Shown: one piece after another, positions 307-40,903 of the stretch
How positions within the stretch are numbered: position 1 is the first letter of the stretch
How the letters are laid out: each line of letters begins with the position of its first letter
DNA from: a virus
DNA length: 40,903 nucleotides
Reading direction: 5' to 3' (one strand)
IMG/VR virus record: IMGVR_UViG_3300025536_000004
Location: 1 to 40,903 of that record
Made by a program: the position numbers and the translations under genes
Notes under the pieces: generated by a model
What the model was told of the DNA's origin: nothing
The model's database searches: none
What the model saw: only the letters and a program-made list of their open reading frames with translations

Positions 307-804
307 ATGAGCGCAGGTGATATAAAAATCGTAGACTTGGGAGGCAGAAATGTCTCACCAGTTAGGCGATTTGTTACGGAGTCTGCCGAAACTGCTATCA
401 ATCCTGGCGAACCAGTAGTCATTTCTAATACAAATGTCTATGTGATTGCTGCCGTGGATGCTGATGGTGTGTGTTACGCAGATTACTTCGTAGGAATTGC
501 CGCAAAGGTATCATCTCATTCGGCTTCTGCTGACGGCTATGTGGACGTTTATCTCGACCTTCCTGGTGTTATTTACGCAGCCAAGCCAAAGACGGCTGGT
601 TCGTGTAATACCCAAGCCAAGATTGATGCTCTTATGTTTAAGAGAGTCATTCTTGATTTGACTGCATCGAAGTACACGGTAGACACGGCGAATGCCGGGG
701 GTGTAACCCAATCAATCATGATCATGGGTGGCAACCCCGACCAAGACGAGTGCTACTTTGCGGTGTGTGACCAAGGAACGTGGAGAAACTACGGACACGG
801 ATAA
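307..804 (+). CDS. Putative head decoration/cement protein (165 aa)
   Basis: Lies between the scaffold-like and capsid genes (lambda D-E-like order). Beta-rich pattern GEPVVISNTNVYVIAA...FVGIAAKV...DGYVDVYLDLPGVIYAA resembles small decoration proteins; motif-level only. Confidence 0.35.
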   Translation: MSAGDIKIVDLGGRNVSPVRRFVTESAETAINPGEPVVISNTNVYVIAAVDADGVCYADYFVGIAAKVSSHSASADGYVDVYLDLPGVIYAAKPKTAGSCNTQAKIDALMFKRVILDLTASKYTVDTANAGGVTQSIMIMGGNPDQDECYFAVCDQGTWRNYGHG

Positions 805-813
805 TAAACTACT

Positions 814-3248
814 ATGAGTTATTCAAGCGGATTAAATCCCAATGCCGTTAAGACAGCCTTAGATGATATTTTTGACCAGGAGTATAATGCGGAGACACAT
901 CCTCAGTATGCTTCGGCAGAAACAGAGGCAGTTTTCCACCAGGATACGGCGGAAAACGCAGCGGTAATTTGGGAATTGTTTAAGGGAGTCGGAAACTGGG
1001 AACAACGAGCTGAAGAGCAAGATGTTCCACAGGGAACGCCTCGAATTGGAAATCAAAAGACCTTCTCAGTACTCAACTTCTCTAAGAGTGTTGACGTACC
1101 AAAGAACTTCTTCGATAGATTTTTGACATATCAACTTGCATAGGGTAGGATTACCTTATGAAAGAGAATGTCAGTCAGTTGGATAGATACCAGCGTTACA
1201 GATTAAGACACCCAGAGAGGATACGACAGCACCTTAAAAACTATCGTCTTAATCATCCAGAAAAAATTAAGGAATTTCGTACTCGATACTACGAGAAACA
1301 TAAAGAAGAAATAAAGAGAAAGGAGTTAAAAAAGTATCGTAGTAATAGGGAGGAAATCCTAAAGAAAAGGGCAACATACAGGAAAGACAATCGCATTAAA
1401 ATTCTCACAAGCAGTAGAAGACAGATTCTGAAGAAGTATGGGATGACAGCCGAAGATTACGAGAGTCTTCGTGAGAAACAAGAAGGCAGGTGTGCGATTT
1501 GCAATGTGCATTTCTCAGAAAAGGTGATTCTTGGTCGTATGCCGTCCATAGACCATTGTCATCAAACTGGAAAAGTAAGGGGTCTTCTTTGTATGACTTG
1601 CAACACCAAGTTGGGTGTACTGGAAAATAAGGTATTTATTCAACAGGCAGAAAAATATCTCAATAAAGATATTGTTGTCGAAGTGAAAATGGGTTAAACG
1701 GGGAAACTCCAGAACGGACAATCCCGTACCAAGCTAGAGGTTAAAATCTTTAGACGGTCGAACGACTAGGTGGTGAACCTCGCAAGAGAACATAACCCAC
1801 CCACGAAACCCCATTACTCGAAAGAGTAAAGATATAGTCTGAACATTACAGGAATGTAATGAGAGGGGGAATAAAGAGTCCCTCTGGTAACAAGAAGGAC
1901 AATATGCATAAAGCGTTTGCTTTCGCACTGTGCATATAAAACTGGGATAACTTCGGGGGAACTCCGTTAAAAGGAAAATCCCGACCCAAGTATGAGGTTA
2001 AAATCTCATAAAGGGCGAACGACTAGAGGGTGAACCTCGCAAGAGAACATAATCCTTCCACGAAACCCCAGCACCGAAAGGTGAAGATATAGTCTAAGCA
2101 CCAAACGAACCTTGATATTGATAGCATTTTATGATACATTAAGTTGTATGATAACATGTGCAAAATGTAAGAAACTCGGTAAAACATGCGGTAGCTGTAA
2201 AGAGTATGGGAGGAAGTACAGTAAGGCCCACCGAAGCGAGATGAATGAATACAGCAATGTATATTACTACAAGAACAAAGAATGGATTAGGGCAAAGGCT
2301 CAGGAGAAAAGAGCTTTAGAGGGAGAGAAGTATATGAACTGGAGAAGGAGGCCAAGACTCAAAAGAGTGTATGGAATAACCCAAGACCAGTTCAACGAAA
2401 TGCTTTCTGCTCAGGGTGGTCTTTGTAAAATCTGTAGAAACGAGTTTAATGAGATGTTAAGACCCTGTGTTGACCACTGTCATAAGACAGGAAGGGTCAG
2501 GGGGCTGCTCTGTAGAAAGTGTAACCTCATCTTAGGGCAGATAGAAAAGAACAACATCGAAATTGCATTGATTAGTCAATATTTAAAATAAGTTGGTGAA
2601 GTAAGGGATAAAGAGCCTTTACGATAATAATACTAGGGTGCTTACGAGAAAATGGTTCGCAACTTCGCCCGTCGTGCTCGCACGACCCGTGATTCAAATG
2701 CGATGGCTATTTTCCGAACAGCTACCACAACTACCACGACAGCAGATGGTGTGGCTTTGATTTCAGATTCACACATTAACTTGAATGGTACGACAGTTAA
2801 TAACAAGGTTACGGGAGCTTTGAGCGAAACAACCTTGAACACCGCCATCGTTCAGCTTTTAGAAATGAAAGCAGAAGATGACGTTGTTGATGGTTCACTC
2901 GCTCAGACTCTCTTGGTTCCTCCGGCTCTCTATAAGAGTGCTGTTGAAATCACTGAATCAGAGCTTCGCTCAGGAACTGCCAACAACGATATGAACGTCT
3001 ACTCAGCTAAGTATGGAATTAACGTCTATACTTCCCAGTTCTTGGGAGCGGCTGCTGGAGGTTCAGACGCAGCGTGGTGGTTATTGGGTAACAACCACTC
3101 TATCTACCGATTCGTTCGGCAGGGAGTACAGACCGACCTTGTGGACTACAAAACCCAGCGGAACAACAACTACATCTACAAAGGTGAGTTCCGTGAGGTT
3201 GTAGGCCCGATGTCGTTTGAAGGAATAGTGGGTTCGAGTGGCTCGTAA
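814..3248 (+). CDS. Major capsid protein gene in three exons (814..1116, 1898..1909, 2637..3248) split by two group I introns; spliced product 308 aa
   Basis: The 814 ORF stops at 1141 and the capsid-like frame resumes at 2637, right after an in-frame TAG. All junctions fall on codon boundaries, giving ...PKNFFD/DNMH/GAYEKMVRNFARRA.... Sits after the scaffold gene; capsid-like sequence pattern. Confidence 0.8.
1117..1897 (+). mobile_element. Group I intron 1 (781 nt) with the homing endonuclease ORF in the P1 loop
   Basis: P1 CUUCGAU 1110-1116 / GUCGAAG 1677-1683 with U1116.G1677 wobble. P10 AUUGUU 1671-1676 / GACAAU 1898-1903. P7 GACUA 1764-1768 / UAGUC 1835-1839. J8/7-P7 hallmark AAGAUAUAGUC 1829-1839; omega-G 1897. 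Core is paralogous to intron 2. Confidence 0.8.
1158..1697 (+). CDS. Intron-encoded HNH homing endonuclease, endonuclease VII type (179 aa)
   Basis: CAICN...SIDHCHQTGKVRGLLCMTCNTKLG His-Me finger motif. N-terminal basic repeats (RLRHPERI, RLNHPEKI). ORF lies between the 5' splice site and the internal guide sequence. Confidence 0.85.
   Translation: MKENVSQLDRYQRYRLRHPERIRQHLKNYRLNHPEKIKEFRTRYYEKHKEEIKRKELKKYRSNREEILKKRATYRKDNRIKILTSSRRQILKKYGMTAEDYESLREKQEGRCAICNVHFSEKVILGRMPSIDHCHQTGKVRGLLCMTCNTKLGVLENKVFIQQAEKYLNKDIVVEVKMG
1898..1909 (+). other. 12-nt capsid micro-exon GACAAUAUGCAU (Asp-Asn-Met-His) between the two introns
   Basis: Bounded by omega-G 1897 of intron 1 and the U1909.G1930 P1 wobble of intron 2. 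In frame with exons 1 and 3. Confidence 0.7.
1910..2636 (+). mobile_element. Group I intron 2 (727 nt) with the homing endonuclease ORF in the P9 loop
   Basis: P1 AUAUGCAU 1902-1909 / GUGCAUAU 1930-1937. P10 GCACU 1925-1929 / GGUGC 2637-2641. P7 GACUA 2021-2025 / UAGUC 2090-2094. AAGAUAUAGUC 2084-2094. P9 stem CACCAA 2099-2104 / UUGGUG 2593-2598 encloses the ORF. P9.x hairpin 2601-2622 has loop AUAAAGAG as in intron 1. Omega-G 2636. Confidence 0.8.
2148..2591 (+). CDS. Intron-encoded HNH homing endonuclease, endonuclease VII type (147 aa from ATG 2148; the track starts at TTG 2112)
   Basis: CKICRN...CVDHCHKTGRVRGLLCRKCNLILG motif; N-terminal CxxC...CxxC zinc-ribbon-like segment. Confidence 0.85.
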   Translation: MITCAKCKKLGKTCGSCKEYGRKYSKAHRSEMNEYSNVYYYKNKEWIRAKAQEKRALEGEKYMNWRRRPRLKRVYGITQDQFNEMLSAQGGLCKICRNEFNEMLRPCVDHCHKTGRVRGLLCRKCNLILGQIEKNNIEIALISQYLK

Positions 3249-3274
3249 ACCAAGTAATAATACAATTAACAATA

Positions 3275-3799
3275 ATGACTACAATCTACAAAGTCTTGTT
3301 GGGAGTAGCGTTATTGCTTGGCGTTGCTGGGCTTTTCCTCCCACAAGTTGTATCGGTTCTCGGAGGTACAACCAATTTGGACTCGTTGACTCTATCAGGA
3401 ACCCTGACGGCAGCAACGATTGTCAATACTGGTTCATTCATCAGTGATGCAATCTCGGCTACTACTGGGTTTTCCATCGCTGGCGGAGCAACTACCACGG
3501 TTTCTAACTGTACTAGCACGTCGTGGAATCCAGGGGCGATTTCTACTTCTACTGTTGCAACTACAACCGTGACTGCTATCCCAGGAATTACAGCAGGTGA
3601 TATTGTTTCCTTATCAATTGACACCTCAACCGTGTCATCCACTAACCAAGTTGCAGCTATCCTCTCTGGTGCGGTTTCCCTTTCGGGAGCGAGCACTGGG
3701 ACGATTACTGCACAGCTTTCCTGGCCCGCTACGGGCCCGGCAGCGGGAGTGTGGGATATTGCAACAACCACCTTGCGTGCCTGTTGGAGACGGCAGTAA
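3275..3799 (+). CDS. Thr/Ser-rich protein with an N-terminal hydrophobic signal/anchor-like segment (174 aa)
   Basis: MTTIYKVLLGVALLLGVAGLFLPQ... followed by a T/S/A/G-rich beta-like sequence; directly downstream of the capsid gene. Confidence 0.65.
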   Translation: MTTIYKVLLGVALLLGVAGLFLPQVVSVLGGTTNLDSLTLSGTLTAATIVNTGSFISDAISATTGFSIAGGATTTVSNCTSTSWNPGAISTSTVATTTVTAIPGITAGDIVSLSIDTSTVSSTNQVAAILSGAVSLSGASTGTITAQLSWPATGPAAGVWDIATTTLRACWRRQ

Positions 3800-35040: not shown

Positions 35041-35404
35041 TCAAGAAAGAGCAGCTAAAAGAGTTAAAGAGGTTATTGAAAAAGGGGAGAAGATAGATGG
35101 AGGAGACATATTGGAAAACATCGGATACAGTAAGTCAATAGCAAAGAACCCAAAACTCATATTTCAAAGTAAAGGATTCCAAGAGGCTCTAAAGAGTCTA
35201 GGCTTCTCGGTAGGAGCAGCCGATATGACTATTGCTAAGATTCTTAGAACGGGAAAAGAAGAGAATCAGATTAAAGCTTCCCAAGAGATTTATAAACGAT
35301 TCGGAGCTTACGAACAGGGAGGAGAGACAACAAGTAATACTTTTATTCAAATTAATATTAACCCCCCGAATGGAAAAGGTACTGAACATAAATCCGACAG
35401 CTAA
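35027..35404 (+). CDS. terS: Terminase small subunit candidate (125 aa)
   Basis: Directly upstream of and overlapping TerL; helix-turn-helix-like ILENIGYSKSIAKNPKLIFQSKGFQEAL pattern. Confidence 0.55.
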   Translation: MPTINQERAAKRVKEVIEKGEKIDGGDILENIGYSKSIAKNPKLIFQSKGFQEALKSLGFSVGAADMTIAKILRTGKEENQIKASQEIYKRFGAYEQGGETTSNTFIQININPPNGKGTEHKSDS

Positions 35405-36779
35405 ACAGTATGAGGCGTGGCAAGCTCTCCAAGACCAAGACATACGGGAGATTCATTTTGGTGGAGGAGCTGGAGGTGGGAAGAGTTGGCTTGGTTGCGA
35501 ATCAAGACTTGTAAGAGCTTTAGCTTACCCTGGGTATAAAAGTTTTATCGGAAGAAATGAACTTACTAGATTGATGGCTTCGGCTTTTGTTACATGGCAG
35601 AAGGTGTGTTCCTTGCATGGGCTAGAAGCAGGGAAAGACTGGAAGTTAAACGGTAAATATAACTATATCGAGTTTCCTAATGGAAGCAGAATCGACCTTT
35701 TAGACCTCGCTCATAAGCCAAGCGACCCAATGTATGAGAGACTAGGTTCTTTAGAATACACCGACGGTTGGGTGGAAGAAGCGGGTGAGGTTCCTTTTAT
35801 GGCGATTGATATCCTTCAGTCAAGAATCGGGCGACACAAGAACGAAGAATTTAACCTAAAGCCAGACACACTTTATACCTACAACCCAAACAAAGGCTGG
35901 GTGTATCGTATTCATAAGCAAGCTAAAGAAGGCACGCTTCCAAAAGACACAGTGTTTATTCAATCCCTTTATAAGGACAACCCATTTACGGCAGAAATTT
36001 ACGGCGAGCAGTTGAATAGAATCAAAGACCCCGCTATGAGAGCGAGGCTTCGAGAAGGTTCTTTTGATTACGATAACGACCCAGCAAAACTCATTGAGAC
36101 TGATGCAATTATAGACCTTTTCACAAATACGGTTGACGTTGGCGAGAGATACCTAACGATTGATGTGGCACGGCACGGCGTAGACAAGACTGTATTCTAC
36201 CTATGGGAAGGGTTTAGGGTGTATGGAGTAAGGATTTATCAAAAACAAGACACTCAGGTTACATCCGAGAAGGCTCGTATTGTCGCCGCCGATGAAAGAA
36301 TACCGTATAGCCATTGTCTTGCTGATGAAGACGGCATTGGTGGAGCGGTAGTGGATACGAATAAAGGATTCCAGGGATTTATTGCGAACACGCCCGCTAT
36401 GGAGAATAAAATAACCGAGGAGAAGGAGAACTACGCAAACCTACGGTCACAGTGTCATTACGTTATGGCTGATAAGATAAACAAACACATGATGGCTATT
36501 AATGTAAGACCAGAACAGTTTAAGTCAGAGGTTCCAGGACTTACTTTTGAGGTTTGGAAAGAGATGTTGGCCGAGGAGCTAGAGGCTATCAAGTCAAAAG
36601 ATATGGACAAAGACAACAAGCTGAAGGTTCGTAGTAAAGAAGAGGTGAAAGAAGAGATAGGAAGAAGCCCTGATTTCTCGGATACCTTAATGATGAGGAT
36701 GAAGTTTGACTACGGCACAACAGGAGTTGCACACGTTGTCAAGATATACCGTCCAGCATTGACAAGAAGGCAGTTTTAG
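35370..36779 (+). CDS. terL: Terminase large subunit (469 aa from ATG 35370)
   Basis: Walker A FGGGAGGGKSW; Walker B-like region WVEEAGE; C-terminal nuclease-type acidic motifs (LTIDVARHG, LADEDGIG); size and position before the portal. Confidence 0.85.
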   Translation: MEKVLNINPTAKQYEAWQALQDQDIREIHFGGGAGGGKSWLGCESRLVRALAYPGYKSFIGRNELTRLMASAFVTWQKVCSLHGLEAGKDWKLNGKYNYIEFPNGSRIDLLDLAHKPSDPMYERLGSLEYTDGWVEEAGEVPFMAIDILQSRIGRHKNEEFNLKPDTLYTYNPNKGWVYRIHKQAKEGTLPKDTVFIQSLYKDNPFTAEIYGEQLNRIKDPAMRARLREGSFDYDNDPAKLIETDAIIDLFTNTVDVGERYLTIDVARHGVDKTVFYLWEGFRVYGVRIYQKQDTQVTSEKARIVAADERIPYSHCLADEDGIGGAVVDTNKGFQGFIANTPAMENKITEEKENYANLRSQCHYVMADKINKHMMAINVRPEQFKSEVPGLTFEVWKEMLAEELEAIKSKDMDKDNKLKVRSKEEVKEEIGRSPDFSDTLMMRMKFDYGTTGVAHVVKIYRPALTRRQF

Positions 36780-40508: not shown

Positions 40509-40903
40509 ATGGAAAACATCGAAAACGCTGTACAAAACGAGTCTCCCGCAGCAGAAACTCAGATAGTTAATTCGGAGGAATCCAAATTAGACACAAAGAT
40601 TGTCATTGAAGCGTTGGAGGAGAGTGACAAAGCCTTAGCGAAAGCTGAGGAGAAAATCGTCAGGATGAAGAAAGATGCTAAGAAGTCTTCGGACGGATTT
40701 GCAGATGAATCTCTTGATGAAGATATTGATGCGAAGATAGAACGGCTTGTGGAAGCTAAGCTTTCTCAAAAGCCAGAGCGGAATGACGAGACCTTAGCAG
40801 AGCTTCAAAACTCTCGCAAGAAAAACTCTGAACTCCTTGCCTCCCTTCGTTCTCAAAAAGGAATTTCCAACAGTGGAGCAGGGTCTAGCCAGGTTCAACA
40901 CGA
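40509..40903 (+). CDS. Scaffolding-like protein, N-terminal part (continues at base 1 across the junction)
   Basis: ATG 40509; the frame stays open to the window end and continues through the 127-bp repeat. Confidence 0.55.
   Translation, partial: MENIENAVQNESPAAETQIVNSEESKLDTKIVIEALEESDKALAKAEEKIVRMKKDAKKSSDGFADESLDEDIDAKIERLVEAKLSQKPERNDETLAELQNSRKKNSELLASLRSQKGISNSGAGSSQVQH
40777..40903. repeat. Right copy of the 127-bp terminal direct repeat
   Basis: Identical to 1-127. Confidence 0.95.

Follow-up and report, generated by a model that had tools for sequence, protein, structure and literature searches.

Group I introns have been described in the capsid genes of mycobacteriophage LittleE, where splicing was shown by reverse transcription PCR, and of lactococcal phage Tuc2009 (PMC3706429). 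A crAss-like phage of the Zeta group carries at least three such introns in its capsid gene (PMC7886860), and genes of Bastillevirinae phages contain two or three introns, with a small exon between introns (phiNIT1) and with exon skipping (PMC11878797). The type member of the DHHRN family of homing endonucleases, F-CphI of cyanophage S-PM2, has a C-terminal endonuclease VII (Endo VII) motif with the residues D, H, H, R and N; further members lie in group I introns of the DNA polymerase genes of Yersinia phage Berlin and Pseudomonas phage LUZ24, and further intron-encoded ones occur in several myoviruses (PMC6083498). We describe here the major capsid gene of IMG/VR virus record IMGVR_UViG_3300025536_000004, a stretch of 40,903 nt that is referred to below as the window (all coordinates are 1-based on the strand shown), and consider it very probable that this gene, in a complete 40.8-kb phage, is split by two group I introns, as the original prediction had proposed, and that these are independent, mobile elements of subgroup IA. 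The same prediction called the arrangement unusual, which was an overstatement, since phage capsid introns, multi-intron capsid genes and a small exon between phage introns have all been published. The phage T4 introns in td, nrdB and sunY belong to subgroup IA2, are mobile, and are associated with I-TevI, II and III, which are GIY-YIG or HNH enzymes; their ORFs (open reading frames) lie in P6 or P9.1 loops, with one intron per gene, and a tension between ORF translation and ribozyme folding is known for them. Twort orf142 reportedly contains three introns.

The capsid frame that opens at ATG 814 closes at TAG 1141–1143, and the downstream capsid frame begins at 2637, immediately 3′ of TAG 2634–2636. 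The gene can be divided, on the + strand throughout, into three exons and two introns. Exon 1 (814–1116; from the ORF list and its translation) covers codons 1–101, ends in TTC GAT and is colinear with homologs through F100-D101. Intron 1 (1117–1897; 781 nt, Rfam RF00028) follows codon 101, at a position that we call site A; it contains the stop at 1141–1143 and ends in G 1897. The middle exon, GACAAUAUGCAU (1898–1909), comprises only the 12 nt GAC AAT ATG CAT, encoding D102-N-M-H105, and is followed after codon 105 (site D) by intron 2 (1910–2636; 727 nt, Rfam RF00028), which ends in G 2636. Exon 3 (2637–3248) supplies codons 106–308 and the stop; protein P0081 of the homolog list is the source contig's call of this same ORF. 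Joining the exons (303 + 12 + 612 nt) gives 927 nt, or 308 codons plus stop, with both junctions in phase 0. The strings and coordinates quoted in the original prediction, including the points at which the frame stops and resumes, the shared blocks, P1 and P10, the terminal (omega) G residues and the 308-aa ORF, proved exact throughout.

The core structures, the splice junctions, the homology of the spliced product and the presence or absence of introns among relatives were each established by computation. The spliced 308-aa product matches the Pfam families Phage_capsid_4 and Mu-like_gpT (PF25209, PF10124) and the PHROG major head protein, and a search of 5.8 billion proteins returned 745 homologs; the best 120 of these 745 are mostly 306–312 aa long and 60–78% identical, nearly all with 93–100% query coverage. 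Colinearity with intron-less homologs, which had been predicted, was borne out by an alignment of the spliced product with 29 homologs of ∼308 aa: the segment PKNFFD/DNMH/GAYEKMV (slashes mark the junctions) is free of gaps, and D101, D102 and H105 are invariant across all 30 sequences. The predicted peptide spanning the junctions is NFFDDNMHGAYEK. At the DNA level, 54 intron-less alleles give the consensus AAGAACTTCTTTGATGACAATATGCACGGTGCT, and ligation of the window exons gives AAGAACTTCTTCGAT/GACAATATGCAT/GGTGCT, so that the middle exon equals the consensus except at its final base (T in the window, C in the consensus). The closest relative, L179 (L-numbers denote loci fetched from public contigs, some chosen for capsid score and others for intron pattern), is 78% identical in amino acid sequence and has an uninterrupted capsid gene of exactly 927 nt with the empty-site sequence TTCTTTGATGACAATATGCACGGAGCA.

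These comparisons also constrain where the junctions can lie. For intron 1, a one-base shift of either junction destroys an invariant residue. If both junctions of intron 2 were moved by +1, the result would be HSA, a sequence seen in homologs, but the base preceding the 5′ splice site would be A instead of U. Barring that one shift, the proposed junctions are the only ones that restore D101, D102 and H105; they also give back the exact gene length of the family, 927 nt, and the claim that the junctions fall on codon boundaries stands with them. The full-length, colinear family match identifies the predicted product as an HK97-fold, Mu gpT-like major capsid protein. Gene callers break the gene into 109-aa and 198-aa pieces and overlook the four-codon exon, and recognition of the introns recovers the real 308-aa capsid protein from these split calls. 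The arrangement is not a twintron, in which one intron is nested within another: the introns stand in tandem, the 12 coding nucleotides that separate them are conserved in all homologs, and each intron possesses a full core along with a P1 and a P10 of its own.

That both blocks are group I introns, as predicted, agrees with a covariance-model search, in which RF00028 matched each of them. Intron 1 was matched over 1627–1861 (51.3 bits, E 2.7e-10), above the gathering score of 50, and intron 2 over 1873–2117 (24.7 bits, with an E-value of 0.025 for the whole window and 0.0011 in a 1.8-kb search). The lower score of intron 2 probably reflects the ORF in its P9 and the missing P2, as read from the printed alignment, and its assignment is supported by family homology and covariation among predicted helices. 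Blocks of ∼160 nt in the two introns share 81% mean column identity (78% across the trimmed cores), and the J8/7-P7 string AAGATATAGTC is present at both 1829–1839 and 2084–2094. The Rfam model and scans revealed no further group I introns or endonucleases elsewhere in the 40.9-kb window.

Related introns were gathered from IMG/VR and metagenomes by means of a conserved core pattern; eight cores were aligned (alignment A3), and P3, P4, P5, P6, P6a, P7, P7.1, P7.2 and P8 were drawn by hand on that alignment. Across the eight cores 97.8% of cells are paired, compared with 29–46% when the 3′ partners are slid by 1–3 columns. Compensatory changes on both sides occur in 17 of 39 pairs, and none of 500 shuffles reaches the observed values. 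P7 is invariant across the eight cores, and covariation therefore neither supports nor contradicts it. Between the two window introns themselves about nine pairs show compensatory changes (in P3, P4, P6a, P7.1 and P8, as read from A3). Taken together, the Rfam model and the covariation among relatives assign a group I core to both introns.

The catalytic core of intron 1 occupies 1689–1839 (P3–P6, P6a, P7, P7.1, P7.2, P8 and J8/7, by covariation), and that of intron 2 occupies 1942–2094 (P3 to P8 and P7, by covariation and helix coordinates), both on the + strand. The minimum-energy fold of intron 1 recovers most of the drawn helices plus P9 and P9.1 (z = −3.35); a construct of intron 2 from which the ORF was deleted likewise recovers most helices, plus a P9 stem and P9.1 (z = −2.98). 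In intron 1 the folded hairpins are P9 (1844–1861, with a GGAA loop) and P9.1 (1862–1885, with AAUAAAGAG in its loop). In intron 2 the P9 stem (2099–2598; read from the sequence as CACCAA 2099–2104 pairing with UUGGUG 2593–2598) surrounds the endonuclease ORF, as an equivalent P9 stem does in related introns, and the folded P9.1 hairpin (2601–2622) has the loop AUAAAGAG; these four elements are again on the + strand. Between P7 and the 3′ strand of P3 lie P7.1 (5 bp, three compensatory pairs) and P7.2 (3 bp, one compensatory pair), helices that assign the introns to subgroup IA; a P2 is evident in neither window intron. A P9.1 loop with AUAAAGA(G/A) is common to every related intron whose 3′ end was read, and P9.1 is followed, a few nucleotides before the terminal G, by a string resembling GAUAAC (GGUAAC and GAUAAU in window introns 1 and 2, respectively). 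These conserved 3′ tails (1869–1897 and 2607–2636 in the window) may take part in a tertiary contact.

Each intron also has its own pairings with the flanking exons. In intron 1, the P10 strand and the internal guide sequence are adjacent (1671–1683, + strand): GUCGAAG 1677–1683 pairs with CUUCGAU 1110–1116 to form a P1 of 7 bp that ends in a U·G pair, and AUUGUU 1671–1676 pairs with GACAAU 1898–1903 to form a P10 of 6 bp. The corresponding segment of intron 2 (1925–1937, + strand) comprises the guide sequence GUGCAUAU (1930–1937), which pairs with AUAUGCAU (1902–1909) in a P1 of 8 bp, again with a terminal U·G, and GCACU 1925–1929, which pairs with GGUGC 2637–2641 in a P10 of 5 bp. In all 13 tabulated introns, at four insertion sites, P1 and P10 track the exon sequence. 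At site D, where both pairings covary with the exon in L171 and L148, AUGCAU/GUGCAU is replaced by AAGCAU/GUGCUU, and GCACU/GGUGC by ACAGU/GCUGU; at site A, where P1 and P10 both covary with the exon in L073b, L074 and L071b, the P10 pairing AUUGUU/GACAAU becomes AUUAUU/GAUAAU or GUUAUU/GAUAAC. As these pairings change together with the exons in independent contigs, at the same positions, they provide independent support for those that were predicted in the window.

Splicing, which is predicted to need no help from protein, would then proceed as follows. The guide sequence of each intron would pair with the end of its upstream exon to form P1, with the U·G pair at the cleavage point, and guanosine would attack there; the released upstream exon would in turn attack beyond the terminal G, positioned by P10. 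Both ligations would be needed to give the 927-nt mRNA for the 308-aa capsid protein, and production of virions would therefore depend on both splicing events. The P10 of intron 1 (1898–1903) and the P1 of intron 2 (1902–1909) overlap by 2 nt of the middle exon, so that the two helices could not both be fully formed simultaneously. Whichever intron splices first, the pairings of the other would stay intact.

Each intron contains an ORF for an enzyme with an Endo VII motif of the DHHRN type. Endonuclease 1 (1158–1697, + strand; 179 aa) matches PF02945 (E 9.4e-21) and the PHROG endonuclease VII; its ORF is located in the loop of P1, between the 5′ splice site and the guide sequence, and the final 27 nt of the ORF overlap with P10, with the guide sequence and with P3. 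Endonuclease 2 (2148–2591, + strand; 147 aa), which also matches PF02945 (E 9.6e-21), lies in the P9 loop. The mechanical start of its ORF is TTG 2112 (ORF 2112–2591), and the true start is probably ATG 2148, which fits the N-terminal CxxC...CxxC seen in homologs and the source's gene call, also of 147 aa. The two enzymes are only 36% identical to each other, and both align to residues 10–71 of T4 endonuclease VII, the catalytic N-terminal part of that enzyme (endonuclease 2 with E 1.4e-5). The D, H, H, R and N residues are kept in both, within the motifs IDHCHQTGKVRGLLCMTCN and VDHCHKTGRVRGLLCRKCN. We therefore modify the earlier description of these ORFs as HNH: both encode endonucleases of the His-Me finger superfamily, but PF02945 (Endonuclease_7) is the sole Pfam family matched by either at E ≤ 0.01, Pfam HNH is not matched, and the label is right only at the superfamily level, because Endo VII and HNH share that superfamily (PMC5714182). 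Both are predicted to be DHHRN-type homing endonucleases of the F-CphI family. In site-A relatives such as L073b the P1 loop is ∼50 nt long and the ORF is in P9; the position of the window ORF in the P1 loop therefore looks like a rearranged ORF cassette.

Directly upstream of each endonuclease start is a promoter-like motif on the + strand. Motif 1 (1123–1151) is TTGACA-17-TAGGAT, scores 10/12 in a consensus scan and ends 6 nt 5′ of ATG 1158; motif 2 (2112–2140) is TTGATA-17-TACATT, with TG before it, and ends 7 nt 5′ of ATG 2148. The same layout, a sigma-70-like −35 element, 17 nt, a −10 element and then ATG, was found for 18 of 35 distinct related intron ORFs (among them those of L001, L074, L075, L096, L109, L114 and L171), compared with 1 of 70 out-of-frame tests. 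This suggests that the endonuclease mRNAs are probably leaderless and transcribed from intron-internal promoters.

Most fetched capsid loci (74) are intact; given the mixed selection of loci, these counts give no intron frequency. In many relatives the FFDDNMHG motif is interrupted by an intron of this family, at one of four points, each of which follows U and all of which fall within the 12 nt encoding DNMH. Site A, after codon 101, is occupied by at least nine distinct introns (window intron 1, L073, L074, L071b, L109, L140, L177 and the ORF-less L122 and L156); site B, after codon 102, by at least six (L040, L001, L096, L114, L135, L176); site C, inside codon 104 after AU, by at least four (L075, L093, L130, L149); and site D, after codon 105, by three (window intron 2, L171/L174 and L148). 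The window fills the outermost two, and its middle exon covers exactly the stretch between them. Introns sharing both the position and the guide sequence of intron 1 are present in L073, L074, L071 and L122. Alleles with site A only include L073, L074, L122, L140 and L156, and those with site D only are L171/L174 and L148, so that the series seen comprises empty, A only, B only, C only, D only, and A + D in the window. L109 and L149 have an identical 29-residue peptide around the target, yet carry introns at different sites. From this distribution, the DNMH-coding target is a recurrent intron site in the Mu gpT-like capsid family, and its introns are predicted to be mobile.

Mobility would be driven by the endonucleases, which would cut the intron-less capsid alleles of co-infecting relatives, whereupon repair would copy the introns in; with sites only 12 bp apart, co-conversion of both introns would be the usual outcome. 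A more speculative extension, which we think rather unlikely to be correct, is that these 12 nt are a contested landing pad in phages that probably infect bacteria of the Candidate Phyla Radiation (CPR), entered at four different points by at least four intron lineages that each bring an Endo VII-motif endonuclease, and that double occupancy blocks rival endonucleases in a form of intron-mediated interference competition. Were that so, the window phage could have a capsid gene uncuttable by all competing endonucleases while it attacked the capsid genes of co-infecting relatives, and the pair of introns would be something beyond plain selfish DNA. On the same reading, the 2 nt common to the P10 of intron 1 and the P1 of intron 2 may impose an order on the two splicing reactions.

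Two proposals concerning the origin of the pair were considered and set aside. A recent local duplication was rejected: the window cores are 78% identical to each other and 80–84% identical to introns of other contigs, to which they are thus at least as close, and the endonucleases share 36% identity and occupy different loops. A recent horizontal arrival of intron 2 is not supported, as its divergence from the L174 ortholog (65% nucleotide identity, with 49% amino acid identity for the endonuclease) is approximately equal to that of the flanking exon (63% nucleotide identity).

Several observations weigh against two functional, self-splicing introns. Splicing is predicted here from DNA sequence, and the splicing of some phage group I introns in vivo depends on protein cofactors. 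The P1 of intron 1 would have to span a 560-nt loop holding a translated ORF, the 3′ end of which overlaps the guide sequence and P3 and could hinder folding; the best helix that would close this loop (−13.4 kcal/mol) is no better than chance, being matched by 57 of 500 shuffles. Intron 2 scores under the Rfam gathering threshold (24.7 versus 50 bits). In addition, promoter-like motifs are not enriched across the region as a whole (6 found, 4.5 ± 2.5 expected). The low score of intron 2 and the P1 loop of intron 1, with its overlapping ORF and statistically unsupported closing helix, are also what would be cited in favor of one or both ribozymes being decayed or helper-dependent, such that the gene is inactive in a defective phage or its splicing requires a host or phage factor. 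We judge this unlikely. Neither intron has lost any core helix or the J8/7 and P7 strings, and where the two differ the changes are compensatory; P1 and P10 have remained complementary in the L171/L174 ortholog of intron 2 as the exons drifted apart to 63% nucleotide identity; and both endonuclease ORFs, like the rest of the terminally repeated genome, look intact.

The remaining alternatives concern the middle exon and the assembly. Joining of the 5′ site of intron 1 directly to the 3′ site of intron 2 would drop DNMH and leave the product in frame (FFD/GAY), either as the main or as a regulated product, and the Twort orf142 paper of Landthaler and Shub (1999) is said to name exon skipping in its title. 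Skipping between tandem phage group I introns has been observed experimentally in the SIOphi terminase (PMC11878797). In the window it is very improbable: none of the 30 aligned homologs lacks the four residues, and D102 and H105 do not vary among them; the 12 nt are kept in 54 of 54 intron-less alleles (which were found by a motif requiring this D and H); and for the middle exon each intron brings matched P1 and P10 pairings of its own. We attach still less weight to the idea that the tandem pair arose in assembly, by a chimeric or duplicated joining of reads from two single-intron variants, even though the sequence is a metagenomic assembly and single-intron alleles at each site occur in nature. 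The exons on either side are continuous in sequence and keep the frame, a second contig (20–50 kb) shows the same arrangement, with the same exon-3 protein, and other contigs also have two introns in the capsid gene (L071). Nor is the pair a collapsed or expanded repeat, since the cores differ by ∼20% and the endonucleases, at 36% identity, are in different loops.

Several other loci carry introns of this or a similar kind. L071 (2317–4000; on the same contig as L083 and L157) has a two-intron capsid gene in which each intron contains an Endo VII-motif ORF; its introns are separated by the 25-nt exon A GAA TTG AGT AAA GAT TTG TTC GAT, and the upstream intron, which has a very small core, lies inside codon 93 (after AGC AU). 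In L073 an ORF-less intron (2525–2795; Rfam 84.9 bits) near capsid codon 16 has a clear P1, ACGGAGCU/GGUUCCGU; no junction with U before the intron and G at its end restores the frame VKTEL/DRVF, and an A seems to be required at the 3′ terminus. L084 and L085 apparently have same-family introns near the 5′ end of the capsid gene, with cores just upstream of matches that start at residues 23 and 14, respectively. An Endo VII-motif ORF in L008 (5657–6067), ∼700 nt downstream of an intact capsid gene, could be free-standing or lie in an intron of the next gene. L082 (3850–5150, on a 99-kb contig that also includes L154) contains at least three tandem group I introns in another gene, with exons of ∼30 and ∼50 nt; the middle intron has a P8-loop ORF with CxxC...HH...CxxCH, HNH-like by eye, and L145 shows two cores at the same 919-nt spacing as the L082/L154 contig. 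In L002 (2350–3130, − strand) a different gene is interrupted by an intron that belongs to this family and has the identical P7.1/P7.2 string.

The window, which begins and ends with an exact 127-nt direct repeat (1–127 and 40777–40903), is a complete genome of 40,776 bp, either assembled as a circle or with terminal redundancy. It contains no tRNA genes, and the large terminase subunit is encoded at 35232–36779. Two leads were discarded: a blastn search of 700–3300 for GenBank phage relatives gave only a 33-nt chance match, and a CRISPR-DR30 match at 1246–1283 (E 0.76), inside endonuclease ORF 1, was taken as chance. Capsid homolog P0048 (65% identity) is located at 74–95 kb of the 235.6-kb JBBCGM010000001.1 (L180/L181), which is binned as Candidatus Moraniibacteriota. 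Another homolog is labelled Paceibacterota, and intron-bearing relatives come from 0.1-μm groundwater fractions (Hainich). The picture suggests that the hosts are CPR (Patescibacteria) bacteria. A search of bacterial genomes with the core pattern returned only a Limosilactobacillus coleohominis contig (L106) and a contig of a Myxococcales metagenome-assembled genome (L107), and was uninformative on the host. Our literature search brought up no report of group I introns in Patescibacteria phages, and the locus extends intron-rich structural genes to a phage group apparently linked to CPR bacteria. The natural allele series opens the way to studying the competition between homing endonucleases and introns over a single short, conserved target, and the locus itself allows both the sharing of a 12-nt exon by two ribozymes and the protection of a host gene by introns against rival endonucleases to be examined.

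Compared with LittleE and Tuc2009, the window shows the same combination of a major capsid gene, a U before the 5′ splice site, a terminal G, an intron endonuclease gene and relatives that lack the intron. Those phages have one intron each, whereas the window has two in tandem; moreover, the LittleE ORF is LAGLIDADG-like and on the opposite strand, whereas both window ORFs have Endo VII motifs and are on the same strand as the gene. As in published multi-intron phage genes, several group I introns with IA-like cores interrupt one essential gene and leave short internal exons. The window differs from those genes in its 12-nt internal exon, for which we make no claim to be the shortest, and in the 2-nt overlap of P10 and P1. 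Like the T4 introns, those of the window are mobile, IA-type phage group I introns, by their predicted features, with endonuclease ORFs in peripheral loops; unlike them, they appear to have no P2. The two enzymes share with F-CphI an Endo VII catalytic motif with D, H, H, R and N, but F-CphI is free-standing and acts with a neighboring ORF-less intron, whereas the window enzymes are intron-encoded within a capsid gene. What sets this locus apart is the combination of a 12-nt exon with overlapping P10 and P1 pairings, an endonuclease in a P1 loop, and a four-point insertion hot spot.

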